Assembly (NCBI GenBank): GCA_964469325.1
Contig: CAYXZN010000001.1
Coordinates: 1-47,353 of the forward strand
DNA from: an uncultured Steroidobacteraceae bacterium
Lineage (GTDB): Bacteria; Chloroflexota; Limnocylindria; QHBO01
Direction of reading: 5' to 3'
DNA: 47,353 nucleotides
A program made the position numbers and the translations under genes. This document shows, piece after piece, positions 10,032 to 34,576 of the stretch (the first letter of the stretch is position 1; each line of letters starts with the position of its first letter). Below the pieces are notes generated by a model. That model was not told where the DNA came from and did no database searches. It saw nothing but the letters and a program-made list of their open reading frames with translations.

Positions 10032-10083
10032 TGTGCTACCTCCTCCGGATGTGGTGCCTGTAGGTACGTCGCCAGGTACGTCG

Positions 10084-12527: not shown

Positions 12528-12531
12528 GCCA

Positions 12532-13672: not shown

Positions 13673-13689
13673 GGCCCGAGGCTCGGCGG

Positions 13690-13733
13690 TTGACTGGCAC
13701 CCCGGCCGTCCCGTATCCTCGATAATCGATGAT
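13690..13733 (+). promoter_or_regulatory. Rightward promoter (TTGACT-N18-TATCCT) fused to a 15-nt operator TCGATAATCGATGAT (box 2, copy A)
   Basis: The -35 TTGACT is at 13690..13695 and the -10 TATCCT at 13714..13719. The final T of the -10 is the first base of TCGATAATCGATGAT (13719..13733), which is identical 15/15 to 27073..27087. The SDR start codon lies 38 nt downstream. Confidence 0.55.
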
Positions 13734-14562: not shown

Positions 14563-14579
14563 CAACGAGGAGCGTCCTC

Positions 14580-15446
14580 ATGCAGAGGGTGACCGACAAC
14601 GTCTGCACCGATACCACCCTGCGGGGCTGCAACCCGAGCTACGTCGTCACGCGTGACGGCGTGGTGGTCATCGACACGCCGCAGCTGCCGACCAGGGCGG
14701 TTGCCATGCGCAAGGAGGCGGAGGCGCAGGGGCCGATTCGCTTCCTGATCAACACCGAGCACCACGTCGACCACATCTTCGGCAACTACTTCTTCAAGGG
14801 GGCCGGCACGGTGGTCAACCACCGGGGGCTGTACGAGAACTTCATGGTGCCCACTTCCGACCTCGATCCCTACGAGTACGCGAAGGAGGCGATCCCGACC
14901 GACGATCCAGAAGGTGCGTCCATCTTTCCCGAGCGGGACGGGTACTACGCCGATCCCAACAAGGGGAAGATCGTCTTCACCGGTGACCTGATGCTCCGCG
15001 TCGGCGAGCACACCTTCCACCTGCTGCACACGCCCGGGCACACGCCAGGACAGCTGGCCGTCCACGTACCCGAGGAGCGGGTGGCCTTCACCGGGGACAC
15101 GATCTTCAACGAGTGCCAGACGTGGCTGATGACCTCGAACGTCGACGAGTGGCTGGTGGCGCTCGACCGGATCAAGGCGCTGGACGTCGACCACGTCGTC
15201 CCCGGTCATGGCCCGGTGACCACGCTGGACTACCTCGACACCCAGCGGGCCGTGCTCCTCGAATGGAAGGCGGCCGTGGCGGCCGCGATCGCGAAGGGCT
15301 GGAGCCGTGAGGAGACGATCGAGCGCGTGAGCTTCGCCGATCGCTACCCGGTCGACGTGGGGCAGGGATACATGATGGACCACATCCAGACGCTCAACGC
15401 CGGCTCGCTGTACGACAAGCTCACCGCCGTCCCCGCGAAGGGCTGA
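14580..15446 (+). CDS. Metallo-beta-lactamase-fold hydrolase
   Basis: The real start is ATG 14580 (MQRVTDNV..) inside track ORF 14118..15446, preceded by the RBS GAGGAG. The HxHxDH motif appears as NTEHHVDHIFG; later metal ligands are HTPGHTPG and VVPGHGP. Confidence 0.85.
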   Translation: MQRVTDNVCTDTTLRGCNPSYVVTRDGVVVIDTPQLPTRAVAMRKEAEAQGPIRFLINTEHHVDHIFGNYFFKGAGTVVNHRGLYENFMVPTSDLDPYEYAKEAIPTDDPEGASIFPERDGYYADPNKGKIVFTGDLMLRVGEHTFHLLHTPGHTPGQLAVHVPEERVAFTGDTIFNECQTWLMTSNVDEWLVALDRIKALDVDHVVPGHGPVTTLDYLDTQRAVLLEWKAAVAAAIAKGWSREETIERVSFADRYPVDVGQGYMMDHIQTLNAGSLYDKLTAVPAKG

Positions 15447-15457
15447 GGGTGGCCGGA

Positions 15458-16516
15458 ATGTCAACCTCGACCATGGAGGCGCTCGTCGTCGTCGAGCCGC
15501 AGCGCCTGGAGATCCAGCAGGTCCCGATTCCCGAGCCTGGCCCCAACGAGGTGCTGGCACGCGTGCGCGCCGTCTCGATCTGCGGGACCGATGCGCACCT
15601 GATCCACGGCGACTACGCCGGCTTCTGGCCGCCCAGCTTCCCGTTCGTGCCGGGGCACGAATGGGCCGGGGAGATCGTGTCCCTGGGTTCGGGCGCCGAG
15701 CGCCTGGGCTGGAAGGTGGGGGACCGCGTGGCCGGAACCTCGCATGACGCGTGCGGGGTGTGCCAGAAGTGCGTCGAGGGTCGCTACAACCTGTGCGAGA
15801 ACTACGGCAAGGAGGGCCTGCACCGCCAGTACGGCCACAACTACCAGGGCGCCGACGCGACCTACGTGGTGCAGGGAGTGAAGTCGATCTTCCGCCTGCC
15901 CGACGCGCTGAGCTTTGCCGAAGGTGCCCTGGTTGACCCCGCCTCGATCGCGCTCCACGTGGCGAATCGCGGGGGAGTGCAGCCCGGTGACACGGTGGCC
16001 ATCACCGGTGCCGGCGCGATCGGCCTGCTGGGGGGCGACGCGGCGCGTATCCGGGGTGCCGGGCGCGTGATCGTGGTTGGGCGCGGCCGGCGCCTGGACA
16101 AGGCCGCCGCTCTCGGCTTCGAGACGGTCGACTCCACCGCCGGCGATCCGGCGGCCGCGGTGCGCGAGCTGACCGACGGGCTGGGCGCCGACGTGGTGCT
16201 CGAGTGCGCAGGCGTGCCGGAGACGACGGTATGGGCCCTGGAGATGCTGCGTCGCGGCGGCCGGTGCGCGGTGGTCGGGATTCCCACCGTCCCGGTGGAG
16301 ATTCCGCTTCAGAGGCTGGTGCTGGACGAGCTGGAGCTGGTCGGGTGCCGCGCGTCTGCCGGGGAGATGCGCCGGGTCATGCCCCACGTCGAGCAGGGCC
16401 GGATGCGCGTCCGGGAGGTGATCACGCACCGCTTCCCGCTGGCCCAGTACCAGCAGGCCATCGACACCTTCAACGACAAGGCGAGCGGCGCGATCAAGAT
16501 CATCGTCGAGCCCTGA
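15458..16516 (+). CDS. Zn-dependent medium-chain alcohol/polyol dehydrogenase (sorbitol/threonine dehydrogenase-like)
   Basis: The catalytic-Zn region is ICGTDAHLIHGD..PFVPGHEWAGEIV. The structural-Zn Cys cluster is CGVCQKCVEGRYNLC. The Rossmann loop is ITGAGAIGLL. The track start is GTG 15449, but ATG 15458 has better spacing to GAGGGTGG. Confidence 0.88.
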   Translation: MSTSTMEALVVVEPQRLEIQQVPIPEPGPNEVLARVRAVSICGTDAHLIHGDYAGFWPPSFPFVPGHEWAGEIVSLGSGAERLGWKVGDRVAGTSHDACGVCQKCVEGRYNLCENYGKEGLHRQYGHNYQGADATYVVQGVKSIFRLPDALSFAEGALVDPASIALHVANRGGVQPGDTVAITGAGAIGLLGGDAARIRGAGRVIVVGRGRRLDKAAALGFETVDSTAGDPAAAVRELTDGLGADVVLECAGVPETTVWALEMLRRGGRCAVVGIPTVPVEIPLQRLVLDELELVGCRASAGEMRRVMPHVEQGRMRVREVITHRFPLAQYQQAIDTFNDKASGAIKIIVEP

Positions 16517-16559: not shown

Positions 16560-18686
16560 TCAGGCTCGGCCTGCGGCCACTTCCTCGGCGCGGGTTCGGC
16601 TGCACAGCCGGATGAGGTCCTCGTGCAGCTCGAACCAGATGCTGTGGTAGCTGTCGACGCGGGGTGAGGCGACGTAGGCGGTGTCGCCGTCGCGAGCGGA
16701 GTCGCCGGCTCGCTCCAGCCGGTTGCGATACGTGCCGAGGCGCGGCAGCGCCTCGACGAGCGGGTCGATCCAGGCCAGGACGTCGTCGTGCAGTGCAGCC
16801 AGGCGCTCGAGCACCCCGCCGTCGTACGCCTGGTCGCTGTGGTCGTTGACGGTCTGCTCGCCGTCCACCTCCCGCATCTGCCACTCGGTCACGGTCAGCT
16901 TCATGCGTGCGTCGAGAGCCAGGAAGGCGTCCAGGGCGCGCTCCGCGGCTTCGTGTCCCCACGCCTCGCGGTCGGCGGCGACCAGCTCTGCCGCGGCCGC
17001 CTTGCCATCCGCGGTCAGACGGAACGACCCCGCCGACACCTCCGCCAGGCCGTCGGCGACGAGGCGGTCCAGGACGGCCCCTGCATGGTCGGCGGTGCAG
17101 AACATCGATGCCGCCAGCATGTCCGCGGTCGCATAGCCCTTGATCAGCAGCGCGCGCAGCACCTCCTCGCGGTTCGTCTGCTCCGAGCCTGCCGGCTTCC
17201 CGCCGCGCTCGCTGCCCGTACCAGCCGGGATCTCGATCCCGAGCTCGCGGGCCCAGGAGAGCAGCACCTCGGCTTCCGGCACCGGCTGTCGGGCTGAGGC
17301 GACCTCCCCGGCATACACGCGGCCGGAGGTGCCGTCGATGGTGATCACCTCCCCGGCGGCGAGCTCACGGCCGTGGACGGTGATGCCCGCCGCCGCCACC
17401 CCGATGCCGTCGGCGCCGACAACTGCCGGGATGCCCCATCCGCGGGCGACGACGGCGGCGTGGCTGGCCAGCCCCCCGCTGGCCGTCAGCACACCGGCCG
17501 AGCAGGCCATGCCGTGCACGTCGTCGGGCGACGTCTCGGAGCGAACCAGGATGACGCGGCGACCCTCCTGAGCCGCCGCCGCGGCGGCGTCGGCGCTGGT
17601 CACGATCTCGCCACAGGCGACTCCCGGCGACGCACCCAGGCCGGTGGCGAGCAGCCGAGCGTCCACCGGCGGGGTGCTCCGCACCGCGGGCGGATCGGCG
17701 AGCAGGTGTGCCACCCGTCGCACCGCGGCGTCGCGCTCCAGTGGGAACGTCGCGTCTTCCGCCATCTCGACCGCCACCCGCAGCGCCGCCTGCGGACTGC
17801 GCTTGCCGACGCGCACCTGCAGCAGCCAGAGCCGGCGGCGCTCGATGGTGAACTCGATGTCGCAGAGGTCGGCGTAGTGCCGCTCGAGCCGATGGGCGAC
17901 GTCGTGGAGCTCGCGGGCCACCTGGGGCATCCGCTCGTCCAGGACGCCGATCGGCTCGGTGCGGTGGTCGCCGGCCACCACGTCCTCACCCTGCGCACCG
18001 AACATCACGTCGCCGTACGGCGTCGCCTCCCCGGTGGCCGGATTTCGGGTGAACAGGACCCCCGTCCCGGAGTCCGGACCGAGATTGCCGAAGACCATGG
18101 CCTGCACCGTGACGGCCGTCCCGAGGTCGTCGGCGATGCCCTCGTGCTGCCGGTACTTTCGGGCGCGCGGGCTGTCCCACGAGCGGAAGACCGCGTCCAC
18201 CGCCCCACGCAGCTGCACCCACGGGTCGTCGGGGATCGACTCGACCCCCACGATCGCGCAGTACATCGCCCCGAATCGGCGCCAGCAGTCGTCGGCGAAG
18301 GTCGGGTCGCCGGTCGTGGCGGCGAGGCCCTCGACCGCCGCCGGCGTGAGGCCGAGGTTGAGGATGGTGTCCATCATCCCGGGCATCGAGACCGGGGCGC
18401 CGGACCGAACGCTCACCAGCAGCGGGTTGGTGGGATCTCCGAACCTGCGGCCCACCGCCTCCTCCAGCCGCCGCATGTGCTGCCGCAGCTCCTCCTCCAG
18501 CCCATCCGGCCAGCGTCCGGACAGGGAGGCGAGGCAGGCCTGCGTGGAGACGGTGAACCCGGGTGGGACGGGCAGCCCGAGGCGCGTGACCATGGTGCTG
18601 ATGTTCGCTGCCTTGCCACCGATCAGCCGCTTCAGGTCCTCCGGCGGCAGGTCATGTCGGTGCTCGAAGGCGAAGACGTAGCTCAA
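16560..18686 (-). CDS. Atypical PEP-utilizer: PPDK-type ATP-grasp N-domain plus phosphohistidine swivel domain plus an unrecognised ~200-aa C-terminal domain; no PEP/pyruvate TIM-barrel
   Basis: 708 aa. N-terminal PPDK_N motifs are present (LIGGKAANISTM..GLPVPPGFTVST, LVSVRSGAPVSMPGMMDTILNLG, GTAVTVQAMVFGN, DIEFTIERRRLWLLQVRVGKR). The swivel domain is SGGLASHAAVVARGWGIPAVVG, with catalytic His409 at codon 17462..17460. Residues ~505-708 (nt 16563..17174) lack any GTNDL-type TIM-barrel motif and look like a winged-helix segment followed by a helical domain. Confidence 0.8.
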   Translation of the reverse strand: MSYVFAFEHRHDLPPEDLKRLIGGKAANISTMVTRLGLPVPPGFTVSTQACLASLSGRWPDGLEEELRQHMRRLEEAVGRRFGDPTNPLLVSVRSGAPVSMPGMMDTILNLGLTPAAVEGLAATTGDPTFADDCWRRFGAMYCAIVGVESIPDDPWVQLRGAVDAVFRSWDSPRARKYRQHEGIADDLGTAVTVQAMVFGNLGPDSGTGVLFTRNPATGEATPYGDVMFGAQGEDVVAGDHRTEPIGVLDERMPQVARELHDVAHRLERHYADLCDIEFTIERRRLWLLQVRVGKRSPQAALRVAVEMAEDATFPLERDAAVRRVAHLLADPPAVRSTPPVDARLLATGLGASPGVACGEIVTSADAAAAAAQEGRRVILVRSETSPDDVHGMACSAGVLTASGGLASHAAVVARGWGIPAVVGADGIGVAAAGITVHGRELAAGEVITIDGTSGRVYAGEVASARQPVPEAEVLLSWARELGIEIPAGTGSERGGKPAGSEQTNREEVLRALLIKGYATADMLAASMFCTADHAGAVLDRLVADGLAEVSAGSFRLTADGKAAAAELVAADREAWGHEAAERALDAFLALDARMKLTVTEWQMREVDGEQTVNDHSDQAYDGGVLERLAALHDDVLAWIDPLVEALPRLGTYRNRLERAGDSARDGDTAYVASPRVDSYHSIWFELHEDLIRLCSRTRAEEVAAGRA

Positions 18687-18714
18687 CGTCGGGTTCTCCT
18701 CGGGCTCGGTGGGC

Positions 18715-19605
18715 TCAGATGACGGCCACCGGGTCCACCATGGACCCTGTGGCCCCGCGGATCTTCAGCGGCAGGGCCACGAACAGGAACTCGTAGATCC
18801 GCTCGTGCGCCAGCTCCTCCAGATCCAGGCTCTCCATCAGGTACACGCCGCTCTCGATGAGCAGGAGCGTGTGGACCGGCTGCGGGTTGCCGGATGGGCC
18901 GGGATCCGGCGCCGGCTGCACCTCGTACGTCTCGGTGTCGGTCCCGGTGCCGACGACGCCCTTCTCCAGCAGCCAGCGCGCGGCCGAGATGTCCGGCCCG
19001 GGAGTCTTGTTGGCGGCCATGGCGTCCACATCGGGCCAGAGGCTCATGTAGCCGGTGCGGATCAGGACGACGTCCCACCGCTCGACGCTCACGCGCTGGG
19101 CGGCGCAGATCGCGTCGAGCTCGGCCGCGTCGATGGGGGAGCCTTTGGGGAGGCAGCCCAGGCCGCGGTGACCGGCGGCATCCAGGAGCACGCCGCGGGT
19201 GAAGAACGGTGGCAGGCTGGAGGCGTCGAGGTGCGTCGGCCCGAAGTCGGTCAGGTGCTCGTCGGCGCGCCCGCCGCCGTACCAGTGCATGTCGTCGCCA
19301 ACCGTCATGTGGGCCAGGGCGTCGACGTGGGCGCCCGAGTGGCTGGTGGCCATCACGTACTCCGCCATGTAGCCGAGGCCCGCGTCGTTGATCGGGCCCC
19401 AGGGTTGGGCGCGGGTGACCCGGATCCCCCGCGGGGTCCGGTAGTTCAGCACCTGGAAGGGCGGATGGCCCGGGAACAGCGGCATGCCGGGGTAGCGCGT
19501 GGCCGCCAGCGAGATCATGCGCCCCTGCCGCACCAACCGGGCGGCGCGAACCACCTGCTCAGCGGGCAGCTCACGGGCAGGCCCCGGCCCGGTTGGGGCG
19601 GTCAT
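18715..19605 (-). CDS. Cyclase-family metal-dependent hydrolase (kynurenine formamidase / isatin hydrolase-like)
   Basis: The real start is ATG 19605 (MTAPTGPGPAREL..), which forms an ATGA overlap with the upstream stop at 19602..19604. The His/Asp metal motif appears as SHSGAHVDALAHM (HxGxHxDxxxH pattern). 296 aa. Confidence 0.75.
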   Translation of the reverse strand: MTAPTGPGPARELPAEQVVRAARLVRQGRMISLAATRYPGMPLFPGHPPFQVLNYRTPRGIRVTRAQPWGPINDAGLGYMAEYVMATSHSGAHVDALAHMTVGDDMHWYGGGRADEHLTDFGPTHLDASSLPPFFTRGVLLDAAGHRGLGCLPKGSPIDAAELDAICAAQRVSVERWDVVLIRTGYMSLWPDVDAMAANKTPGPDISAARWLLEKGVVGTGTDTETYEVQPAPDPGPSGNPQPVHTLLLIESGVYLMESLDLEELAHERIYEFLFVALPLKIRGATGSMVDPVAVI

Positions 19606-21872
19606 GACACCACCTCCATCCTCGCTGAGCGGCGCCGCTCCTCGAGCGCCTGCCAGACCCGCTGCGGGGTGAGCGGCAGGTCGCGAATCACGACTCCGCA
19701 CGCCTGGTGGACGGCGGCCGCCACGGCCGGGGCAACGCACAGCAGCGCGCCCTCGCTCATGCCCTTGGCACCGTAGGGACCGGGGCCGTCCTCGTTCTCG
19801 ACGACCGCGCTCACCATCTCCATCGGCAGATCCTTACTGGTGGGGATGCGATAGTCGATGGCACCCAGGTTCCGGATGCGCCCGGCGTCGTCGAAGATGT
19901 AGTGCTCCATCAGGGTGTGGCCCAGGCCCATGATCGCCGCTCCCTCGTCCTGCATCCGCACCTGCAGCGGGTTCAGCGCCCTGCCGACGTCGGAGACGGT
20001 CACGTGGCGCTGGATCACCAGCTCACCGGTGCCCTCGTCGACCTCCACCTCCACCGCGGTGCAGTTGAACTCGTAGAAGGCCGCCGGACCGCCCAGCGGG
20101 TGGCCCGGCACGTCCTCCTTCCGCGCCGTGCCGTTGCCGATCAGCTCGCCGCCCAGCCGACCCAGCCCGGCGATCAGCACATCGGCCAGCGGCAGCTCCT
20201 GCCCGCGCACCCGCGCCACGCCGCGCCCGATCTCGACATCGCTCTCCGGGGTTTCGTGCAGGCGAGCAGCCATGGCGCGCAGCTGGGCCTGCAGCTGGTG
20301 GCAGGCGTCCAGCACCGCGTTACCCATCAGCACGCTCGATCGGCTGGCGGACGTCTGCTGGTCGTAGGGAGCCACGAAGGTGTCGCCGGAGATGACGTTG
20401 ATCCGGTCCAGCGGCACACCCAGCTCCTGGCTGGCGATCTGGGCGAAGATCGTCCGGGACCCCTGGCCCATGTCCGAGGTGCCGGTGTAGACGAGGACGC
20501 TTCCGTCACCCAGGAACCGCACCGTCGCGTACGAGAGCCCCGTCGTGGGTCCCAGCTTGATCCCGACCGCGATGGCGCGGCCATGGCGCGGCGGCGGGGG
20601 CGTTCCCCAGCCGATCAGCTCGGCGGCGCGCCGCACGCTCTGCTGCCAGTCACCGTCGGCGGGCAGGTCGGTCGGGATGAACCGCTCGCCCTGCCTGGCC
20701 AGGTTGCGCAGCCGGATCTCGAGACCGTCCAGGCCGAGCCGACGGGCCGCCTCGTCCAGGTTCGACTCCACCGCCCAGTTGACCTGGGGCGCCCCGAAAC
20801 CTCGAAAGGCCGTCGACGGCGGGGTGTGCGACAGGATGGCGCGTGCCACGATGCGCGCGGAGGGAACCCGGTACGGACCGTTTCCCGGATAGGAGCCCTT
20901 GCCGACGACCCGGTCGGAGATGTCCGCGTAGGCTCCGAGCAGGTAGTCGGCGAGGATCTCGCGGAAGGCGACTCTCCCGTCCGATCGGAACCCGGTGCGG
21001 ACCCGGATCGCCGAGGAGTTGCGGCGAGCGGCCTGGAACGTCTCCTCCAGCGTCAGGATGAGCCGAACCGGACGGCCGGTGAGCAGCGCCATGAAGGCCA
21101 CCAGCGGCTCGAACTTGACGTGCTGCTTCCCGCCGAAGGCACCTCCGGGGTCGGGCGCCAGCACGCGCACCTTGCTCAACGGCAGCTCGAGGATCGTGGC
21201 CATCATCCGCTGCAGCCAGTACGGGTGCTGGATCGAGCTCCACACCGCGATCCCGTCGCCATCGGGCGCGGCGATGAATCCGTGCGGCTCGATGGCGAAG
21301 TGGGTGACCATCGGAAAGTCGTAGGTCCCCTCCACCACCACGTCGGCCTCGGCCCCGTCCACGTCGCCCCACTCGTAGCGGTGCTCGCGCAGCACGTTGG
21401 TACCGGCCAGCGGGTCGTCCGGCCGCAACGTGGGATCCTGGACCAGCGGTGCGTCGGCTGCCAGCGCTCCGGCTATGGTGAAGACCGCCGGCAGCTCCTC
21501 GTACTCGACCCGGACCAGGCGGGCTGCGGCCTCAGCGGCGTCCTTCGTGTCGGCGGCCACGGCGGCGACGGGCTCGCCGTGGTACTTGACCTCGTCGAGC
21601 GCGATCACCGGCCGATCGGCGAACTGCGGGCCGAACCGCGGAACCGGCTGCGGCAGGTCGGCGGCGGTGAGCACCAGGTGCACGCCCGGGACGCGCTCCG
21701 CCTCCTTCGTGTCGATGGAGACGATCCGCGCGTGCGCGGCGTCCACGGTGACCAGGCGGGCGTGCAGCATGTCCGGCAAGCGCACGTCGGCCACGTACTG
21801 CTGCAGGCCGGTCACCCGGGGGTGTCCGCCCCCTCGCCGCGGAGACGTGCCGACTCCACCGCCGCCGCTCAT
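19602..21872 (-). CDS. Molybdopterin-binding large subunit of a xanthine dehydrogenase/aldehyde oxidase-family hydroxylase
   Basis: The real start is ATG 21872 (MSGGGGVGTSPRR..), overlapping the small-subunit stop as ATGA. 756 aa. Motifs include PRVTGLQQYVADV and AFRGFGAPQVNWAVES (XDH-family RGFG.PQ type, not the CO-dehydrogenase AYRCSFR loop), plus a C-terminal YGAKGMSEG. Confidence 0.85.
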   Translation of the reverse strand: MSGGGGVGTSPRRGGGHPRVTGLQQYVADVRLPDMLHARLVTVDAAHARIVSIDTKEAERVPGVHLVLTAADLPQPVPRFGPQFADRPVIALDEVKYHGEPVAAVAADTKDAAEAAARLVRVEYEELPAVFTIAGALAADAPLVQDPTLRPDDPLAGTNVLREHRYEWGDVDGAEADVVVEGTYDFPMVTHFAIEPHGFIAAPDGDGIAVWSSIQHPYWLQRMMATILELPLSKVRVLAPDPGGAFGGKQHVKFEPLVAFMALLTGRPVRLILTLEETFQAARRNSSAIRVRTGFRSDGRVAFREILADYLLGAYADISDRVVGKGSYPGNGPYRVPSARIVARAILSHTPPSTAFRGFGAPQVNWAVESNLDEAARRLGLDGLEIRLRNLARQGERFIPTDLPADGDWQQSVRRAAELIGWGTPPPPRHGRAIAVGIKLGPTTGLSYATVRFLGDGSVLVYTGTSDMGQGSRTIFAQIASQELGVPLDRINVISGDTFVAPYDQQTSASRSSVLMGNAVLDACHQLQAQLRAMAARLHETPESDVEIGRGVARVRGQELPLADVLIAGLGRLGGELIGNGTARKEDVPGHPLGGPAAFYEFNCTAVEVEVDEGTGELVIQRHVTVSDVGRALNPLQVRMQDEGAAIMGLGHTLMEHYIFDDAGRIRNLGAIDYRIPTSKDLPMEMVSAVVENEDGPGPYGAKGMSEGALLCVAPAVAAAVHQACGVVIRDLPLTPQRVWQALEERRRSARMEVVS

Positions 21873-22345
21873 CGTCGCGCCGCCTCCGCCGCGGCGACCA
21901 CCGCCTCGGTGATCTGCTCGTAGCCCGAGCAGCGGCACAGGTTGCCGGCCAGCGCTTCGTGAATCTCTTCCACCGTTGGATCGGGGTTGCGCTCCAGGAG
22001 CGCCTGCGCAGCCATGAGCTGCCCGGGGATGCAGAAGCCGCACTGGGTGGCCCCCTTGTCCAGGAAGGCCTGCTGAAGCTCGGTCAGCTCACCACCGGCG
22101 GCCAGCCCCTCCACCGTTCGCACCTCGTGCCCGTCGGCCTCCACCGCCAGCATCAGGCACGAGTTGACCGACCGGCCCTCGATGATCACGGTGCACGCGC
22201 CGCACTCGCCCACCACGCAGCACTCCTTCGAACCAGTCAGCCCGAGCTGGTCGCGCAGCACCTCGAGGAGCGTGTGGTGGACCGCGACCTCCAGCTGGCG
22301 CTGCCGGCCGTTCAGGGTGAGCTGGATGGCGAGACTCCTGGTCAT
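21869..22345 (-). CDS. [2Fe-2S]-binding small subunit of the molybdenum hydroxylase
   Basis: 158 aa. It carries both Cys clusters (GSKECCVVGECGACTV and CGFCIPG..CRCSGY), typical of CoxS/XdhC-iron-sulfur subunits. Confidence 0.92.
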   Translation of the reverse strand: MTRSLAIQLTLNGRQRQLEVAVHHTLLEVLRDQLGLTGSKECCVVGECGACTVIIEGRSVNSCLMLAVEADGHEVRTVEGLAAGGELTELQQAFLDKGATQCGFCIPGQLMAAQALLERNPDPTVEEIHEALAGNLCRCSGYEQITEAVVAAAEAARR

Positions 22346-23211
22346 GCTCCTGGCTCCCCGGACAGCCGAGCGGCCGCGGTCTCGAGTGCGCGCATGGCCA
22401 GCACCCGCAGCATCGCCACCCGGTACTCGGGACTGGCCCGCAGCGAGGTGGCCGACGGCGAGGCCGCGGACAGCATCTCCTCCAGGAGCGCGTCGCGTTC
22501 GGACTGCGCTGCGTCGGGATCCGCCAGGGTGCCCGACGCGTCGGTGAAGAGCAGCGGACGGGGGCCGACGCTCCCGTAGGCCAGCCGCACCACGCGGTCG
22601 GCGTCGACGGTGGCGGCCAGCGTGATCGAGGCGAGGTCGGTGCCCCGCCGCCGGGTGAGGCGGGTGTAGGCCCCGCCGGTCGGTCGTGCTTGGAACGGTA
22701 GCTCGATGGCGGTCACCAGCTCGCCCCGGCGCATCGTCGTCTGGCCGGATCGCACGAAAAAGTCGTCGATCGGGATCCGGCGCTCGCCGCCGCTGCCCAT
22801 GACGACCACATCGGCGCCGTAGACGAGCAACGGTGGCGCGGTGTCGGCGGCGGGGGAGGCGTTGCAGATGTTGCCGGCCAGGGTTGCGCGATTGCGGATC
22901 TGAACCGATCCGACCACCGCCGCGGACTCAGCCAGCGGCCGGAACCGCTCGAGCACCACCGGATGGCTCTCGATCTCGCCCATGACGGTGCCCGCGCTGA
23001 TCACCAGCCGCCGCTCTGAGATGCGGATGGCGGGGGCCAGCTCCGGGATGCGCTTGAGGTCGACCACCACATCGGGCTGCAGGGCGTAGTCGCGGAGACC
23101 GATGACCAGGTCCGTCCCACCGGCGATGATCTGCGCCTGCGGCCCGAGCTCCTCCAGGAGCGCGACCGCCTCGTCGAGGGTGGACGGCCGCTGGTAGCTG
23201 AAGGGGTGCAT
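22342..23211 (-). CDS. FAD-binding medium subunit of the molybdenum hydroxylase
   Basis: 289 aa. MHPFSYQRPSTLDEAVALLEE..IIAGGTDLV and RNRATLAGNICNASPAADT are typical of the CoxM/FAD_binding_5 family. It overlaps the small-subunit gene by 4 nt. Confidence 0.88.
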   Translation of the reverse strand: MHPFSYQRPSTLDEAVALLEELGPQAQIIAGGTDLVIGLRDYALQPDVVVDLKRIPELAPAIRISERRLVISAGTVMGEIESHPVVLERFRPLAESAAVVGSVQIRNRATLAGNICNASPAADTAPPLLVYGADVVVMGSGGERRIPIDDFFVRSGQTTMRRGELVTAIELPFQARPTGGAYTRLTRRRGTDLASITLAATVDADRVVRLAYGSVGPRPLLFTDASGTLADPDAAQSERDALLEEMLSAASPSATSLRASPEYRVAMLRVLAMRALETAAARLSGEPGA

Positions 23212-23236
23212 CGGTCTGGCGCCTTGCCTTTCGCCG

Positions 23237-24142
23237 TCAGAGGATCCTGTCCACCTCGTCCATCAGCACCTGGGGGTTGGCAGCACGGACGAAGTAGTAG
23301 GGACGATCGCAGAAGCGTGCCACGAAGTCGGCGCGTGCGCGCCGCAGCGGCTCGCTGTCGATGATCGGCATCGGCCAGTGAGGTGCGAGCAGCTCGTTGA
23401 GCAGGAAGTAGTTCTGCAGCGAATGCAGCGTCTGGAACTGGCGCTCGAAGGGGATCATCTCCACCAGGCTGGGGTCGAAGTTGCCGTCGATGGCCGGAAC
23501 GACCACCACGTCCACGTTGCTCGGGCCCTGGAAGGTCTCCCAGCCTGGCATCTCCCCGAAGAACTTTTCAACGCCGCGGTTGGGCGCCGCCTTGTCGGCG
23601 CGCTCGGTCCCCTCCGCACGCTTCTTGATGAAGACGTCCTTGGACCCCATCACCGCGGTCCCACTCTCGTCCACCACCGTCGTCTCGGTCGAGACCAGGA
23701 GGCCGCCACGGCGGCAGGCCTCGATCTGTCCCATGCTCTTGCCGTGGTTTGACTCGCCGCCCAGGAACATGATGGTGCGATCGCGGTAGCGGACGGCCGA
23801 GGCGTGGAACGGGTGCAGGCCCTGGCCCTCCATGCGCAGCGCAAGCATGGCGACCACCACCTTCTGCAGGGGTCCGGCCGCCCATGGCCCGCTGAACGTC
23901 ACGGCGTGGCCGTCGTACGAGACGGACTTCTCGCCCGTCGTGTGCCACACGATGTCCGGGTCGGACAGCGTCACCTCGGGTGACTGGCGCACATCGGCCA
24001 GGCGGTAGTTGAGGAAGTTCATGTCCTCCAGGACGTGGTCCCGCGGCTCGTCGCCGTGGACGTCGATGCGCAGCCTGGCGCGGCCGGCCGTGAGCTCCTC
24101 GGAGAGCTGGAGGGAGGGGGAGGCCTTGAGAGCGTTCATCAT
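23237..24142 (-). CDS. HPr-kinase/phosphorylase C-domain-like P-loop protein (function unknown)
   Basis: 301 aa. HASAVRYRDRTIMFLGGESNHGKSMGQIEACRRGGLLVSTETTVVDESG parallels the HprK C-domain pattern H-G-x-L-V-x(4,6)-G-x-L-I-x-G-x-S-G-x-GKS..ALEL..G..L..DD. I recognised no other domain. Its start overlaps the GntR gene stop. Confidence 0.5.
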   Translation of the reverse strand: MMNALKASPSLQLSEELTAGRARLRIDVHGDEPRDHVLEDMNFLNYRLADVRQSPEVTLSDPDIVWHTTGEKSVSYDGHAVTFSGPWAAGPLQKVVVAMLALRMEGQGLHPFHASAVRYRDRTIMFLGGESNHGKSMGQIEACRRGGLLVSTETTVVDESGTAVMGSKDVFIKKRAEGTERADKAAPNRGVEKFFGEMPGWETFQGPSNVDVVVVPAIDGNFDPSLVEMIPFERQFQTLHSLQNYFLLNELLAPHWPMPIIDSEPLRRARADFVARFCDRPYYFVRAANPQVLMDEVDRIL

Positions 24143-24834
24143 GTCCTTTCGGCTGGCGTGGGCTGCAGCGGAGCATCGGCGCGGTCCCAGGAGTCGTGGA
24201 GCATCGCGCCGGCAGTCGCGTAGTGCTGCTCCAGAGCCGTCATGGCCGATTGCACGTCGCGCGCGCGGAGCGCGTCGAGCACCGGCTGGTGCAGGTCGGC
24301 GATCCGGTGCCGGTCGGCTCCGGGTGCGACCAGCGTGATGTAGGTGCGCGAAAACGGCTCGAGCAGCCGCCAGACGCGCTGGAGGGTGGAGTTGCCGGAC
24401 AGCGCGACGATGCGCCCGTGGAAGAGGGCGTCGGCGACCGCCTCGGCGTGCAGGTCGTTGGCTCGTGCCGCGCGCCGCATCTCACCCAGGTGGTCGGTCA
24501 GCTCCTGGAGCTCGCCGCCGGTCAGCCTCGGCAGCGCGAGCCGGATCGCGAGCGACTCCAGCTGGACGCGGATGGCGAACGCCTCGAGGAGCTCGTCGGC
24601 CGTCGGGTGGCGGACGCGAGCTCCTCGAAACGCGGAGGTCTCCACGAGCCCGAGGGCCTCGAGGTCGCGCAGGGCTTCCCGCACCGGGGCCTGGCTGGTG
24701 CCGAGCTCGCGGGCGACGCGGGTCTCCACGATCCGCCCGCCCGGCGGGTAGCGGCCGTCCAGGATCGCCTGGAGCAGGTGATCCTTGACCTGGTCGCTCA
24801 GGATCATGCGCGAGATCGAGGCCTCGTGGCTCAT
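24139..24834 (-). CDS. GntR-family transcriptional regulator, FadR subfamily (FCD ligand domain), paralogue 1
   Basis: 231 aa. The wHTH is RIVETRVARELGTSQAPVREALRDLEALGLVE. The FCD-like helical C-domain includes FHGRIVALSGNSTLQRVW. It is closely similar by eye (identity not computed) to the product of 30459..31184. Confidence 0.9.
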   Translation of the reverse strand: MSHEASISRMILSDQVKDHLLQAILDGRYPPGGRIVETRVARELGTSQAPVREALRDLEALGLVETSAFRGARVRHPTADELLEAFAIRVQLESLAIRLALPRLTGGELQELTDHLGEMRRAARANDLHAEAVADALFHGRIVALSGNSTLQRVWRLLEPFSRTYITLVAPGADRHRIADLHQPVLDALRARDVQSAMTALEQHYATAGAMLHDSWDRADAPLQPTPAERT

Positions 24835-24847
24835 GGTCGCGGGTCGC

Positions 24848-26638
24848 TCAGGCCACGAACTCGGCCTGCGGGGTCGGCTCCTTGGGGCCGGTGGCCTCGA
24901 TGATCTCGACCACGCCGCGGGTTCCGTCGACGCGGATCCGATCGCCGGACTTGATCTTCTGGGTCGCCACGGACGAGCCGATGACGGCCGGGATCCCGAA
25001 CTCGCGCGACAGCACGGCCGGGTGCGAGACGGTGCCGCCGGCGTCGGTCACGAGCCCGACGATCTTGGTGAACAGGACCACCCAGGCGGGGTTCGTCATC
25101 TGGCAGACCAGGATGTCGCCGGCCCGCACCTCGTCGAATTGGTCCTCGGTCAGCACCACTCGCGCGATCCCTTCGACCACGCCCGGTGAACCGCCGATGC
25201 CGGTCACCTCGCCCGCCACCGTGGACTCCTTGCGGTGGAACTTGTCGGGGAAGCCCCACAAGTTCAGGTACGGGAAGTCCAGCTGCGACTGGGTGACCGT
25301 GCCGATCCAGTCCTTCGGGCGCTTCTGGTAGGACGCCTCACGCTCCGCCCGCCGCTGCTGGACGATGGCCGGGCCCTCCAGGACCGACGCGTCGCCCATG
25401 ATCACCCGCAGCTCGTTGTAGCGCAGCAGGACCACGTCGTCGGGCTGGTCCAGGACACCCTGCTCCACCAGCTTCTTGCCGATGGCGATGAGGACCAGGC
25501 GCACGTGCGCGTTGGCGCCCTGGTCGATGTAGAAGTGGTGGTCCGGTGTCAGAGGCGCCATCCGGAGGTTGATCTCGTTGGCGGCGCGCATCTCCTCGAG
25601 CGCCTCGCCCTCGAGCCCCTCGAGGATCTCTTTGGCCGCCTTCTCGATGTCCTCGGCGACCGCGGCGATCGTCTTGGGGTAGTCGTAGTTGGTCTCGATG
25701 TATCCGCGGATGAGCTCGAGCACCGGCTCCTTCTGCTCGTAGACGGTCGGGAAGATGAACTCGTGGCTCCAGACCGCGTGCCAGCCGAACTCCTTCTGGT
25801 ACGGCTCCACCCGCTCGGCGAGGAACCGCTGGCCGCGATCGGACGCCCTGAGCGCCTTCAGGATGTCGCCGGCGGTGTCGTGCTTGAACGCTTCCGACAG
25901 CTCGGGATCCGCCTTCGCCTCCTCCTTCATCTTCCACAGGGCCTCGATCGAGTCCCAGTTGCGGTCCTTGGCCGAGTTCTGCAGCCGACCGAGCAGGGCC
26001 TCGTCGACCTTGCCGTGAGTCTTCTCCATGATTGCGCGCAGGTTCAGCGTCGCCGACAGCTGCGCGAAGTTCAGCATCCAGTGGATCTTCCAGTGCCGGT
26101 CGTGGATGTCGATGGCGTCCTCGAGCAGGCAGGCCAGCTCCATGAGCGTCATCTGGTCCGCCTGGTCGAGCTTCTCCTCGAGGTAGTCGAAGTTGCGCCG
26201 CATCTCCGGCACCAGCCGGTCGCGCCACCAGTCGGCGAACTGCAGCCCGTAGGTCGGCAGGACCGCGTTGAGGTACGAGCCGATCCTCTCCGGGTAGCTC
26301 TCCATCAACGGGGTGCGCGCTCCGTAGCGGGCCTGGTACTCCATCGAGTCCATGGCCCACGCCGGGTCGGCCGGGATGGCCGCGGTGTACAGGTAGCCGT
26401 TCACGTTCTTGGCGAGCCAGTCACAGGCGAACGGCGTTCCGAAGCGGCGGAACATGTGGTCACAGGTCAGCCACCAGCCGCCGATGTCGAAGTACATCGG
26501 GCTGAGCGGGTGGGGACAGTGCAGGTCGTCGTAGACCCAGAAGAGCGCCTTCTCCTTCTCGGACGCCCACTCCACGGGGAATTTCTCATCCCCCAGGAAC
26601 TGGCCGAGAATGGGTTCGTTGGTCGCCACCGTGTTCAC
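24848..26638 (-). CDS. PEP-utilizer phosphohistidine (swivel) domain protein with a large unrecognised N-terminal domain; phenylphosphate synthase alpha / rifampicin phosphotransferase-like architecture without ATP-grasp
   Basis: 596 aa. The C-terminal swivel domain is GSPGVVEGIARVV..GDILVCQMTNPAWVVLFTKIVGLVTDAGGTVSHPAVLSREFGIPAVIG, with His539 at codon 25024..25022. The N-terminal ~470 aa is rich in Trp, Tyr, Lys and Glu and has no GGK ATP-grasp motif. The track start is GTG 26638; GTG 26629 has a better-spaced GGAGGTG RBS. Confidence 0.75.
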   Translation of the reverse strand: MNTVATNEPILGQFLGDEKFPVEWASEKEKALFWVYDDLHCPHPLSPMYFDIGGWWLTCDHMFRRFGTPFACDWLAKNVNGYLYTAAIPADPAWAMDSMEYQARYGARTPLMESYPERIGSYLNAVLPTYGLQFADWWRDRLVPEMRRNFDYLEEKLDQADQMTLMELACLLEDAIDIHDRHWKIHWMLNFAQLSATLNLRAIMEKTHGKVDEALLGRLQNSAKDRNWDSIEALWKMKEEAKADPELSEAFKHDTAGDILKALRASDRGQRFLAERVEPYQKEFGWHAVWSHEFIFPTVYEQKEPVLELIRGYIETNYDYPKTIAAVAEDIEKAAKEILEGLEGEALEEMRAANEINLRMAPLTPDHHFYIDQGANAHVRLVLIAIGKKLVEQGVLDQPDDVVLLRYNELRVIMGDASVLEGPAIVQQRRAEREASYQKRPKDWIGTVTQSQLDFPYLNLWGFPDKFHRKESTVAGEVTGIGGSPGVVEGIARVVLTEDQFDEVRAGDILVCQMTNPAWVVLFTKIVGLVTDAGGTVSHPAVLSREFGIPAVIGSSVATQKIKSGDRIRVDGTRGVVEIIEATGPKEPTPQAEFVA

Positions 26639-26958: not shown

Positions 26959-27007
26959 TCGATAATCGATTGTCGATGACGATATTGGCCCAGCGTAGCG
27001 GAGTCAA
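26959..27007 (-). promoter_or_regulatory. Leftward promoter (TTGACT-N17-TATCGT) fused to the 26-nt TCGAT-heptad operator (box 1, copy B)
   Basis: Box TCGATAATCGATTGTCGATGACGATA sits at 26959..26984. On the minus strand the -35 TTGACT is at 27007..27002 and the -10 TATCGT at 26984..26979, with a 17-nt spacer. The architecture matches copy A. It faces the 8-gene operon. Confidence 0.55.
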
Positions 27008-27072
27008 GGGCGCGTGCCCGTGCTCTTCGTCATCGCCCAAGGGGGACGTGCGGCCCTGTTGCCATATCGGGA

Positions 27073-27087
27073 TCGATAATCGATGAT
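27073..27087 (+). promoter_or_regulatory. Operator TCGATAATCGATGAT (box 2, copy B) upstream of the transaldolase operon
   Basis: It is identical 15/15 to 13719..13733 and lies 46 nt upstream of the transaldolase ATG. A TTGCCA -35-like hexamer sits at 27058..27063, but the -10 assignment is ambiguous (ATGATT or GATTAT). Confidence 0.5.
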
Positions 27088-27132: not shown

Positions 27133-28227
27133 ATGACCATCGCCACCACCGACAGCCCGCTTCTGCGCATGGTGCAGGAGACGCCGACCGACTACTGGAA
27201 CGACTCGTGTGCGGTGACGGAACTGGAGTACGCGGTCGAGCGGGGCGCCACCGGGGCCACCTCGAACCCGACCATCGTCCACGAGGTCCTCAAGAAGGAG
27301 TCGGAACACTGGGTCCCGCGCGTGCACGAGATGGCGGCGGCCAATCCGCGCTGGAGCGAGGTGGAGCTGACCTGGGCGCTGGTGGAGGAGATGGCGGCCC
27401 GAGGCGCCGGCGTACTGCAGCCGGTGTTCGATCGCGAGCGGGGGCTCAAGGGTCGCCTGTCCGTCCAGCTGAACCCCGCGAACTACCGCGATCCGCAGCG
27501 CATGGTCGAGCAGGCGGTGCGCTTCGACCAGCTGGCGCCGAACATCCTGGTCAAGTTTCCGGCCACCGCTGCGGGCATCGCCGGCATCGAGGAAGCCACG
27601 TCCCGCGGGATCAGCATCAACGCCACGGTGAACTTCACGCTGCCCCAGGCGGTTGCGGTGGCCGAGGCGGTGGAGCGCGGCCTGGAGCGCCGTGAGCGCG
27701 CCGGCGGCGACACCTCGGCGATGACTCCCATCTGTACGCTCATGATCGGCCGGCTGGACGACTGGGTGAAGGTGCTGGTGGAGCGTGATGACATCGCGCT
27801 GCACCCGGACGCCGCCAACTGGGCCGGCATCGCCGTCTTCAAGCGTGCCTACGCCCTCTTCCGCGAGCGCGGCTACCGTCCTCGGCTGCTGGCGGCCGCC
27901 TACCGCCACCGGCTGCACTGGACCGAGCTGGTCGGCGGTGACGTGGCCATGACCATGCCGCACGCCTGGCAGGTGCGCTTCAACAAGAGCGGCATGGTGC
28001 CGGAGCCGCGGATGGACGTGCCGGTCGACGCCGCCATCGTCGACGATCTGCTGGAGCGGGTACCCGACTTCCGGCGGGCCTACGAACCCGATGGGATGCG
28101 TCCGGACGAGTTCGAGGGATTCGGCGCCTCGGTACGGACCCTCCGCTCCTTCATAAAGTCCTACCACGACCTGATGGCCGCCGTGCGGGACCTTGTCCTG
28201 CCCGACCCCGACAAGCGGCCGAGCTGA
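27133..28227 (+). CDS. Transaldolase-family protein
   Basis: 364 aa, with the RBS GGAGGAGG upstream. Motifs include GATGATSNPTIV, the Schiff-base Lys context ILVKFPATAAG, and SINATVNFTL. Confidence 0.88.
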   Translation: MTIATTDSPLLRMVQETPTDYWNDSCAVTELEYAVERGATGATSNPTIVHEVLKKESEHWVPRVHEMAAANPRWSEVELTWALVEEMAARGAGVLQPVFDRERGLKGRLSVQLNPANYRDPQRMVEQAVRFDQLAPNILVKFPATAAGIAGIEEATSRGISINATVNFTLPQAVAVAEAVERGLERRERAGGDTSAMTPICTLMIGRLDDWVKVLVERDDIALHPDAANWAGIAVFKRAYALFRERGYRPRLLAAAYRHRLHWTELVGGDVAMTMPHAWQVRFNKSGMVPEPRMDVPVDAAIVDDLLERVPDFRRAYEPDGMRPDEFEGFGASVRTLRSFIKSYHDLMAAVRDLVLPDPDKRPS

Positions 28228-28250
28228 GCGAGGCCCACGAGGAGGCAGGC

Positions 28251-32230: not shown

Positions 32231-32251
32231 CCGGACTGGAGCGCTGACGAC

Positions 32252-34567: not shown

Positions 34568-34576
34568 GACCCGCCC

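Follow-up and report, generated by a model that had tools for sequence, protein, structure and literature searches.

An XDH-family molybdenum hydroxylase operon with dikinase-like genes and an orphan P-loop protein, conserved in Limnocylindria-type loci

Molybdenum hydroxylases are thought to need only a substrate, water and an electron acceptor. Why should the genes of such an enzyme share an operon with genes for ATP-dependent phosphotransfer proteins? The question is raised by contig CAYXZN010000001.1, a 47,353-nt stretch of DNA with about 70% G+C (in full, 'the window'; coordinates are those of its forward strand unless a related locus is named). Here the genes for a hydroxylase of the xanthine dehydrogenase (XDH) family lie among those for two swivel-His proteins and for a 301-residue P-loop protein. 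Comparison of related loci shows that the 301-residue protein is a conserved third partner of dikinase genes across phyla and that the XDH-family hydroxylase is genetically locked to them. The cluster is not categorically new, because dikinase-dependent molybdenum hydroxylation and two-component dikinases have already been published; what sets this widespread variant apart is its orphan third component and a new domain.

The operon and its products

Eight co-directional open reading frames (ORFs), all with high third-position GC, run from 26638 to 16560:

24848..26638, minus strand: 596-residue component of HpeH/PpsA-like dikinase type, with a substrate-binding domain of rifampicin phosphotransferase (RPH) type and a C-terminal swivel domain
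24139..24834, minus strand: GntR/FCD transcriptional regulator (PF00392 and PF07729)
23237..24142, minus strand: 301-residue orphan P-loop protein ('K301') with a predicted PEPCK/HprK fold (AlphaFold2 and Foldseek)
22342..23211, minus strand: FAD-binding medium subunit of the XDH-family molybdenum hydroxylase, 289 residues (PF00941, FAD_binding_5, and PF03450, CO_deh_flav_C)
21869..22345, minus strand: small subunit with two [2Fe-2S] clusters (PF01799, Fer2_2, and PF00111, Fer2)
19602..21872, minus strand: molybdopterin-binding large subunit (PF01315, PF02738 or MoCoBD_1, PF20256 or MoCoBD_2; Ald_Xan_dh_C)
18715..19605, minus strand: cyclase-family metal hydrolase (PF04199)
16560..18686, minus strand: 708-residue protein with PPDK_N, PF00391 and a new C-terminal domain (Pfam and AlphaFold2)

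The recomputed junctions measure 13, −4, 25, −4, −4, −4 and 28 nt, with an ATGA overlap at four of them. They reproduce the eight genes with 4-nt overlaps or gaps of at most 28 nt that were claimed in an earlier note on this DNA. Every domain named there was recovered with Pfam and NCBIfam, and the catalytic histidines, His409 of the 708-residue and His539 of the 596-residue protein, had been placed correctly. Two start codons most likely need correction, that of the cyclase gene to 19605 (ATG, in an ATGA overlap) and that of the gene for the molybdenum cofactor (Moco) subunit to 21872. Within the operon, the coding strand showed no terminator-like sites. In a scan of 15.5–27.4 kb, sigma-70-like hexamer pairs were confined to the divergent intergenic stretch that precedes the first gene, where promoter-like hexamers lie at 26979–27087. 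The operon leader of about 340 nt gave no Rfam match to a riboswitch. A 102-residue ORF (26635–26943, minus strand) that overlaps the start of the 596-residue gene by 4 nt was rejected as non-coding (GC3 0.75, GC2 0.66, no homologues).

The 596-residue protein has a PF00391 swivel domain at residues 505–575, with His539 in the motif GGTVSHPAV. The 470 residues in front of it had been described as an unknown domain. This description has to be replaced, as they form the rifampicin-binding-type substrate domain of RPH, PigC and PRK08296 proteins that is also present in HpeH and PpsA. The NCBIfam models PRK08296.1-5 match end to end (residues 26–581), the C-terminal halves of the RedH, PigC and RPH-like models begin to align near residue 140, and together these alignments cover residues 26–583. 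The solved structure of RPH (PDB 5fbs) aligns with residues 380–580, and precomputed annotation assigns homologues to the newer Pfam family PF27448 (Rph_4th). HpeH, PpsA, CreH and AcvA are the substrate-binding and swivel components of recently defined two-component dikinases, in which phosphate passes from ATP through a His pyrophosphate and a His phosphate to the substrate oxygen; the HpeH component alone carries out reversible phosphotransfer, and the characterised HpeH, PpsA and RPH substrate domains all act on aromatic or polyketide-like hydroxyls (PMC12167813). The alignments show the 596-residue protein to be, at the level of sequence, the substrate-binding and swivel-His component of a two-component small-molecule dikinase of PpsA/HpeH/CreH/RPH type. 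Because its N-domain aligns with the rifampicin-binding region of RPH, PigC and PRK08296 proteins, the scheme proposed earlier, in which phosphate moves from ATP to His and then to a small molecule as in phenylphosphate synthase and RPH, is apt.

The 708-residue protein consists of an ATP-grasp domain (PPDK_N), a swivel domain with His409 (GGLASHAAVVARG) and a C-domain of residues ~505–708. The structure 1ggo of pyruvate, phosphate dikinase (PPDK) aligns with residues 17–480, that is with the ATP-grasp and central His domains (E 3e-121). The protein also passes the NCBIfam model NF004531 for a truncated 'PPDK' (512 bits, cut-off 456), and its homologues are annotated by JGI as 'pyruvate, phosphate dikinase'. 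According to Pfam, however, the PEP-utilizers_C/TIM-barrel domain (PF02896) is absent from both swivel-His proteins and from every scanned ORF of the window. An alignment of homologues revealed invariant NDHxDxxYD and ASPRVDSYHxxWFELHEDLI motifs and a C-terminal AAGRA in the last ~200 residues (window 16563–17170). The AlphaFold2 model (pLDDT 87) shows this region as a winged helix with a helical bundle behind it, and Foldseek against the PDB gave no significant match, only weak winged-helix regulators (all E > 0.03). The C-domain is a distinct, highly conserved new domain and, going by its model, not a divergent TIM barrel. No hidden TIM barrel was detected in either swivel-His protein by profile or by AlphaFold and Foldseek, in agreement with the earlier statement that neither is a phosphoenolpyruvate (PEP) synthase or a PPDK.

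For the 301-residue protein there is no Pfam or NCBIfam match and no PDB match by sequence. All of its 2822 homologues are unnamed or 'hypothetical', the best 120 being at least 76% identical; clustering at 50% gives 179 representatives, most of them below full length and probably fragments. The motifs are FHASA (His113), GGESNHGKS (residues 128–136) and RGGLLVSTE. A 12-sequence profile of the family weakly matched the ATP-dependent PEP carboxykinase (ATP-PEPCK) 1j3b over residues 69–132 (E 0.013), a segment spanning G..GEIKK, HASA and the P-loop. In a relaxed Pfam scan of 12 family members, PEPCK_ATP appeared weakly in four (E of at least 0.023) and Hpr_kinase_C in one (E 0.26). The top Foldseek matches of the AlphaFold2 model (pLDDT 85) are 35 ATP-PEPCK structures (E ~1e-7, TM ~0.44), and HPr kinase/phosphorylase (HprK/P) comes next (E 3e-5 to 1e-3). 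Read by eye, the sequence after the P-loop (GKSMGQIEACRRGGLLVSTE) resembles the HprK pattern GKSE..LEL..RGH.LVADD. As Foldseek ranks ATP-PEPCK first and HprK/P next, the label 'HprK-like P-loop' of the earlier note stands at the superfamily level; it does not stand for the family, which is a distinct orphan family with the predicted fold of the PEPCK/HprK-like P-loop superfamily. The window protein has no Hpr_kinase_C hit and no genes for HPr or EI were seen; at 301 against ~530 residues it is also much shorter than ATP-PEPCK, and it has no PEPCK_ATP signature. Control of the swivel His by the 301-residue protein, in the manner of PDRP/PSRP, was considered and rejected, as a Thr or Ser next to the His is not conserved in the linked proteins.

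The FAD, 2x[2Fe-2S] and Moco subunits, with all Pfam domains above gathering thresholds, have the domain composition of a standard XDH-family molybdenum hydroxylase. Among PDB structures, the Moco subunit comes closest to the alpha subunit of 4-hydroxybenzoyl-CoA reductase (4-HBCR; 349 bits); quinoline 2-oxidoreductase (Qor) scores 251 bits, and the aldehyde oxidoreductases PaoC and Mop score ~196–204 bits. Near the C-terminus of the Moco subunit, the motif GAKGMSEG, the Glu of which we take to be catalytic as in the XDH family generally, aligns with GAKGVGEP of nicotinate dehydrogenase, GAKEASEG of 4-HBCR and GAKGLGEI of KDH. The closest plasmid relatives (37–40% identity) are from Variovorax and Arthrobacter, in clusters that can be read as serving N-heterocycle (pyridine-ring) degradation. 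These affinities argue for a ring hydroxylase rather than an aldehyde oxidase. The scores speak against 4-HBCR itself, since they lie below the equivalog cut-offs: the Moco subunit reaches 458 of the 995 bits set for 4-HBCR alpha, and the FAD subunit 117 bits with 4-HBCR beta (two fragments; cut-off 405), compared with 187 bits for the XdhB model. Judged by length alone, the FAD subunit also seems too short for the [4Fe-4S] insert of ~35 residues of 4-HBCR beta. NCBIfam models of the archaeal molybdenum glyceraldehyde dehydrogenase match all three subunits.

The cyclase contains the metal motif HxGxHxDxxxH and matches PDB 5ibz, an uncharacterised PF04199 protein (E 6e-25), and isatin hydrolase (E 2e-4). 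Its family also contains dihydrophloroglucinol cyclohydrolase, a C–C hydrolase (PMC10470551). For this reason the ring or amide hydrolysis that had been deduced from the cyclase cannot be upheld in that form: amide hydrolysis is not implied, and the gene is an optional member of the cluster, as its distribution reveals.

Conservation of the gene set and the regulon

When genomes were scanned with the 301-residue family, 457 at species level proved to hold relatives. The best 80 loci were compared (related loci are numbered here with the prefix L); nearly all are from metagenome-assembled genomes of Candidatus Limnocylindria/Limnocylindrales (Chloroflexota). Candidatus Limnocylindria is an abundant, uncultured class of soil and freshwater, and the window very probably belongs to it. 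The core order 596, GntR, 301, FAD, FeS, Moco recurs across these ~80 genomes, and in 76 of the 80 loci the FAD gene directly follows that of the 301-residue protein. Few of the syntenic proteins are as well conserved as this one (74–86% identity). Genes were counted by tblastn of the window proteins in the 49 loci with enough flanking sequence. The FAD, FeS and Moco genes are present in all 49, the 596-residue gene in 47, the GntR gene in 46 and the 708-residue gene in 37. From the neighbouring operons described below, a short-chain dehydrogenase/reductase (SDR) was found in 43 loci, a metallo-beta-lactamase-fold (MBL) hydrolase in 32, a transaldolase-family gene (TAL) in 28 and a Zn-dependent alcohol dehydrogenase (Zn-ADH) in 24. 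The cyclase gene occurs in 23 loci and UPF0261 in 12; a CoA-acylating aldehyde dehydrogenase of methylmalonate-semialdehyde dehydrogenase (MMSDH) type, which is not in this window, occurs in 24. The arrangement is far beyond chance. Synteny and the co-occurrence of the 596- and 708-residue pair, the HprK-like gene and the molybdenum hydroxylase, which the earlier note had named as its test, were thus confirmed decisively. The cyclase is an optional cluster member, present in about half of the related loci; it is present or absent together with the Zn-ADH, which accompanies it in 29 of 32 cyclase-bearing loci. The C-domain of the 708-residue protein is encoded as a separate ORF of ~200 residues in some assemblies (for example L001 18120–18722), and in L031 and L070 its gene follows the Moco gene with no detectable PPDK-like part.

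More distant members of the 301-residue family (38–57% identity) occur in a Nitrososphaerales archaeon, Gaiellaceae, Thermococcus, WOR-3 and Thermotogota. In the Nitrososphaerales contig, the HpeH-like gene is flanked by those for FeS and Moco, and a bare ATP-grasp gene comes after the 301-residue gene. The Gaiellaceae-type contig has the order HpeH-like, GntR, cyclase, ATP-grasp, 301-residue gene; this dikinase set is convergent with an FAD-FeS-Moco-transaldolase operon and a transporter of branched-chain amino acid (BCAA) type. On subsurface/Thermococcus-type contigs (L093/L094, 1–20891), the 301-residue gene is located between a gene resembling isopropylmalate synthase (IPMS) and other HMGL-superfamily proteins and a cupin gene, with HpeH-like, ATP-grasp, cyclase, UPF0261, E1/E2, DUF169 and DUF1097 genes as neighbours. 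This set looks like an anaerobic counterpart in cultured archaea. As all three types of contig keep the linkage, the 301-residue protein always travels with dikinase genes; the pterin oxidoreductase and the aldolase switch type between aerobes and anaerobes. In L085, L091, L093 and Thermomicrobium roseum, the ATP-grasp partner is a bare protein of 270–370 residues with neither the His nor the winged-helix domain.

Some further neighbours were observed. A UPF0261 gene (family of ATP-binding MarK kinases) paired with one for a PF09370 'PEP hydrolase-like' TIM-barrel protein lies directly upstream of the HpeH-like gene in several Limnocylindria loci and in T. roseum (L001 5276–7359; L084 6490–8593), and the pair is 68–75% identical between the two. 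A small DUF1097-like integral membrane protein, which may be a substrate permease, is encoded near the cluster in 17 related loci, of Limnocylindria as well as Thermococcus type (for example L048 6239–6973 and L093 399–926). A GMC oxidoreductase was spotted as an extra neighbour by a crude all-versus-all ORF clustering, which chained adjacent ORFs. Literature searches for the Thermococcus-type cluster and for the UPF0261/PF09370 partners yielded nothing beyond MarK.

The 11-mer CGATAATCGAT, with up to one mismatch, has nine matches in the window against 0.18 expected. They include clusters in both divergent promoter regions, and other loci have the motif in the corresponding intergenic region. 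The GntR/FCD regulator probably uses it as its operator, which would define a four-operon regulon. Because of the clusters in both promoter regions, we regard a stretch of ~22 kb (8646–30438) rather than 10 kb as the functional unit. Its features outside the operon are:

26960..27084: operator-like CGATAATCGAT cluster in the divergent promoter region that separates the operon from the transaldolase gene
13624..13730: operator-like CGATAATCGAT cluster between the ABC-transporter operon and the SDR-MBL-ADH operon
27133–28227, plus strand: divergent transaldolase-family protein (Pfam, NCBIfam), first gene of a divergent operon (27133..30438) with the next three
28251–28619, plus strand: cupin (Pfam)
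28616–29494, plus strand: N-terminal part of a split transketolase
29491–30438, plus strand: C-terminal part of the split transketolase
13771–14562, plus strand: SDR (Pfam, NCBIfam), in a convergent operon (13771..16516)
~14562–15446, plus strand: MBL-fold hydrolase
15449–16516, plus strand: Zn-ADH
8646..13431, minus strand: BCAA-type ABC transporter with two permeases, two ATPases and a Peripla_BP_6 binding protein (Pfam)

The ABC transporter is probably the uptake system. In L008, L011, L036 and L042 it is located directly upstream of the 596-residue gene on the same strand; its binding protein, a possible clue to the ligand, has no relative in the PDB. Vitamin B6 degradation, with the SDR as pyridoxal 4-dehydrogenase, the MBL protein as 4-pyridoxolactonase and a 3-hydroxypyridine core, found no support, as PDB searches with the SDR and the MBL protein listed no entry under the name of either enzyme.

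Beyond the split transketolase follow a second GntR/FCD regulator gene (30462–31601, minus strand) and then genes for a metallophosphoesterase and for fused E1 and E2 2-oxoacid dehydrogenase components (31211–35830). A copy of CGATAATCGAT with one mismatch is located just ahead of the E1 gene (32218–32228). On the other side, a single ORF (6278–8494, plus strand) joins a D-glucuronyl C5-epimerase-like region (6282–7280) to a complete acyl-CoA dehydrogenase (residues 361–733); either a fusion or two neighbouring genes that run together in one frame may explain it. A Bat-like aerotolerance-type cluster (40053–46861, minus strand) with a MoxR-type AAA ATPase, DUF58, BatA/VWA and a large VWA protein appears to be unrelated.

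A candidate reaction sequence and its alternatives

What would phosphotransfer do for a molybdenum hydroxylase? The reading that we favour, with about an even chance of being right, is that the GntR-controlled regulon serves the catabolism of a phenolic or N-heteroaromatic substrate and centres on a phosphorylation-coupled molybdenum hydroxylase. In this scheme, ATP would pyrophosphorylate a swivel His, and the beta-phosphate would be passed, possibly from His to His, to a phenolic, enolic or hydroxy-N-heteroaromatic hydroxyl bound in the 596-residue protein. The phosphate ester, a weaker electron donor than the phenolate, could then be attacked by Mo-OH, with the electrons leaving via 2Fe-2S and FAD. 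Later the phosphoryl group would be removed or recycled, either by the 596-residue protein to fresh substrate or by the 301-residue protein to ADP or Pi, much as PEPCK moves phosphate from an enol phosphate to ADP or HprK/P performs phosphorolysis to PPi. Breakdown of the ring might proceed free of oxygenases through the co-regulated SDR and MBL hydrolase, joined where present by the ADH and the cyclase-type ring hydrolase. The transaldolase-family protein would possibly act as an aldolase and, in many sister loci, the CoA-acylating (methyl)malonate-semialdehyde dehydrogenase would follow; the end products would be at the level of acyl-CoA and sugar phosphates.

A precedent exists. In the 3hpd cluster of Ensifer adhaerens HP1, the hydroxylase HpdA1-4 turns 3-hydroxypyridine into 2,5-dihydroxypyridine only together with the PPDK-like orf9 and the PEP-utilising mobile subunit orf10, and knockout of either abolishes growth (bioRxiv 10.1101/2020.01.08.898148). 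Since this kinase pair is needed for a four-subunit molybdenum hydroxylase, the composition of the operon is not unprecedented, which corrects the earlier note, whose author was aware of no described pathway with it; T. roseum, too, has an interleaved cluster. Functional coupling of dikinase and hydroxylase is further supported by the synteny, unbroken in 49 of 49 well-flanked loci, by the HpeH-like gene embedded among the hydroxylase genes of Nitrososphaerales, and by the neighbouring dikinase and hydroxylase sets of the Gaiellaceae-type contig. The nature of the phosphorylated group is suggested by UPF0261. This is the family of the aromatic kinase MarK, which functionally replaces HpeHI/AcvAB in acetovanillone catabolism (PMC12624787). 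Its gene stands next to the 596-residue gene in T. roseum and in 12 of the 49 loci, which speaks for a hydroxyl of phenolic or enolic type.

Several points weigh against a phosphorylation-coupled ring hydroxylation. The scheme leaves the swivel His and the winged-helix domain of the 708-residue protein unaccounted for, and transaldolase and transketolase are atypical of aromatic catabolism. Thermococcus-type clusters hold, instead of the XDH-type enzyme and the TAL, two tungsten enzymes of the aldehyde ferredoxin oxidoreductase (AFOR) family with a polyferredoxin, and an IPMS-like enzyme. No phosphorylated intermediate was detected in the 3hpd work, and its authors left the role of the kinase open (bioRxiv 10.1101/2020.01.08.898148). 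The 3hpd cluster has a separate SRPBCC subunit and oxygenolytic genes of the maleamate pathway, both of which are absent here; tblastn with SRPBCC, NicX-, NicD- and NicF-like and monooxygenase queries found none in the window and one weak match over L001–L095. Finally, 3hpd works with hpdA1-4, orf9 and orf10 alone, so no protein of the 301-residue type is required there. No homologue of that protein was found among the PLSDB plasmids, a search in which the Ensifer HP1 sequence itself was not examined.

A wider version of the scheme is speculative, and we would not expect it to hold. Here the HpeH-like protein, the ATP-grasp protein and the 301-residue protein would form a three-component phosphoryl-cycling machine of Bacteria and Archaea. 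Phosphate would be a transient, recyclable activator for a metallopterin oxidoreductase, molybdenum-dependent and XDH-type in aerobes, tungsten-dependent and AFOR-type in anaerobes; the 301-residue protein would then recover the phosphoryl group as ATP or PPi, or drive a carboxylation.

As the AFOR and XDH families share aldehyde oxidation, the anaerobic clusters favour the main alternative explanation, one that we rate as improbable yet worth keeping in view. The molybdenum enzyme would oxidise an aldehyde freed by the transaldolase-family protein (IPMS/HMGL-like in anaerobes), while the dikinase and the 301-residue protein phosphorylate another sugar-like or enolic intermediate that reaches the pentose-phosphate pathway via transketolase and transaldolase. 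It would account for the joint exchange of XDH for an AFOR pair with polyferredoxin and of TAL for an HMGL/IPMS-like protein in the Thermococcus-type cluster, and for the position of the TAL gene within one operon with the molybdenum hydroxylase genes in L091. The split transketolase, the cupin, the gluconate/glucose-dehydrogenase-like SDR and the MBL protein, possibly a lactonase, would fit, as do the matches of all three subunits to the glyceraldehyde dehydrogenase models. On the other hand, the scores of PaoC and Mop remain below those of 4-HBCR and Qor, neither a sugar dehydratase nor a classical sugar kinase is encoded, and the characterised substrate domains all use aromatic or polyketide-like hydroxyls. 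The interleaving of the HpeH-like gene with hydroxylase genes and the 3hpd genetics argue for direct coupling.

A regulatory phosphorelay is distinctly unlikely. Phosphocarrier or swivel-His proteins are the targets of the regulatory kinases HprK/P and PDRP/PSRP, and the 708-residue and HprK-like 301-residue proteins could likewise form a signalling pair, similar to PTS/HprK or PDRP systems, that controls transcription or enzyme activity. The winged helix of the C-domain, which is MarR/DtxR-like and leads into helices with many invariant His, Asp and Glu residues, would suit such a role, and so would the 74–86% conservation of the 301-residue protein, as expected of a protein–protein interactor. 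The expected target is missing, however. Two residues before the catalytic His, where PPDK and PEP synthase have a regulatory Thr (motif as given in PMC12167813) and PDRP would act, 27 of 32 homologues of the 708-residue protein have Ala, as does the window protein. Nor is the Thr conserved in HpeH-like proteins linked to the 301-residue gene, some of which read GGVLAHPAI. A regulatory role is thus made less likely by the position next to the His, where no Ser/Thr is conserved, and by the bare ATP-grasp partners elsewhere, beside which the 301-residue gene is still found; moreover, a dedicated GntR regulator and an operator are already present.

We give even less credence to a combination of PEP-synthase and PEPCK logic, in which an enol or aryl phosphate is formed by the dikinase, the 301-residue protein carboxylates it with regeneration of ATP, and the molybdenum enzyme acts on the product. 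In anaerobic phenol degradation, 4-HBCR acts after phenylphosphate synthase and a carboxylase, and 4-HBCR is the best PDB relative of the Moco subunit. ATP-dependent PEPCK is the best fold and profile match of the 301-residue protein, with aligned motifs (G..G.IQK, HASA, P-loop), and in anaerobes the 301-residue gene is translationally coupled to that of an HMGL-superfamily TIM-barrel protein, a superfamily to which pyruvate and oxaloacetate carboxyltransferases belong. However, the fold match is a remote one, and the protein has little over half the length of PEPCK; the HMGL-like protein is nearest to isopropylmalate/citramalate synthases rather than carboxyltransferases. The loci share no conserved CoA ligase, and the FAD subunit prefers XdhB to 4-HBCR beta in score and seems short for the insert of the latter. 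Chance juxtaposition, or a central-metabolism PPDK or PEP synthase beside an unrelated xanthine dehydrogenase, has practically no probability left: although NF004531 and JGI name the 708-residue type 'pyruvate, phosphate dikinase', it is refuted by the synteny, which extends over 80 species genomes and four phyla, by the absence of any PEP/pyruvate domain from the window and by a C-domain that does not model as a TIM barrel.

If phosphorylation-coupled hydroxylation is confirmed, a kinase-dependent subclass of molybdenum hydroxylases would embody a new principle, the covalent activation of an electron-rich ring by phosphate before attack by Mo-OH. The three-component cycle, if true, would allow O2-independent hydroxylation of electron-rich rings, or the reverse dehydroxylation, at little net ATP. 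For working out the role of the kinases, the cluster offers a much broader and better-defined system than 3hpd, the one case published (in 2020). As a marker the 301-residue protein leads to 457 species-level genomes, with the operon core conserved in the 80 closest, and the distant versions in cultured Thermococcus are open to direct study. Its orphan family of thousands of members, which has no Pfam or NCBIfam model, now has a context and testable hypotheses, and a new C-terminal domain has been recognised on proteins that pipelines mis-annotate as 'pyruvate, phosphate dikinase'. The degradation route appears to be free of oxygenases, and its compound is probably a hydroxylated aromatic derived from plants or humus.

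Comparison with known systems

By its published description, 3hpd is similar to the present cluster in having an XDH-family molybdenum hydroxylase, a PPDK-like/PEP-utilising pair, a GntR regulator and an ABC transporter. It differs in that the ATP-grasp protein here is a PPDK-type fusion with its own His and a new C-domain, which brings the His carriers to two, and in that the downstream enzymes here are non-oxygenolytic.

The uncharacterised cluster TRD_RS09580-09660 on the megaplasmid of T. roseum DSM 5159 encodes homologues of the 596-residue protein (48.5% identity) and of the Moco (38%), FeS (52%) and FAD (36%) subunits, with the dikinase and hydroxylase genes interleaved. It also has GntR, cyclase, the pair of UPF0261 and PEP-hydrolase-family genes and a BCAA-type ABC transporter. 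In contrast to the window, its ATP-grasp protein is bare (323 residues), a 301-residue homologue is missing, and FAH-family and ABM-monooxygenase genes take the place of TAL, SDR and MBL. A hypothetical protein of 205 residues in T. roseum was considered as an equivalent of the 301-residue protein or of the 708-residue C-domain and rejected, as there is no similarity.

The likeness to the phloroglucinol pathway, with its SDR-type phloroglucinol reductase, dihydrophloroglucinol cyclohydrolase, aldolase and malonate-semialdehyde dehydrogenase, is at the family level only (SDR, cyclase, class-I aldolase fold, CoA-acylating MMSDH); the Collinsella phloroglucinol aldolase is listed as EC 4.1.2.4, deoxyribose-phosphate aldolase, and the regulon here has a transaldolase-family protein. 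The ATP-dependent C26 hydroxylation of Sterolibacterium, considered as a possible pairing of a PEPS-like kinase and an XO-family hydroxylase, turned out to be unrelated.

With HprK/P and ATP-PEPCK, the 301-residue protein has the predicted fold and the order of motifs in common (a conserved His, a Walker A motif GxxxxGK[ST] and a strand similar to RGxxLVx[DT][DE]). It has no significant sequence similarity to them and a different N-terminal beta domain, and its genes always stand beside dikinase genes, rather than in the phosphotransferase system context of HprK or the gluconeogenic context of PEPCK. PPDK and PEP synthase share the nucleotide-binding and central phosphohistidine domains with the 708-residue protein, in which their TIM barrel is replaced by the winged-helix and helical domain.

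The closest systems for the 596-residue protein are PpsAB (phenol), CreHI (4-cresol), HpeHI/AcvAB (hydroxyphenylethanones) and the single-chain RPH; it has the two domains of HpeH and PpsA, RIF-binding-like and swivel His. Dikinases of the two-component type turn ATP into AMP and Pi, the beta-phosphate passing through His-P to a hydroxyl of the substrate. The swivel motif of the 596-residue protein is SHPA, compared with (T)(S/C)HAA in PEP synthase (the latter quoted in PMC12167813). The separate ATP-grasp (PPDK_N) partner of the two-component dikinases is also encoded here, in the 708-residue protein of the same operon; it is nearest to genuine PPDK, not to ATP-grasp proteins of the HpeI/PpsB type, and keeps a phosphohistidine domain of its own. 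The dikinase genes described here are accompanied downstream by those of a molybdenum hydroxylase rather than of a carboxylase or a P450.

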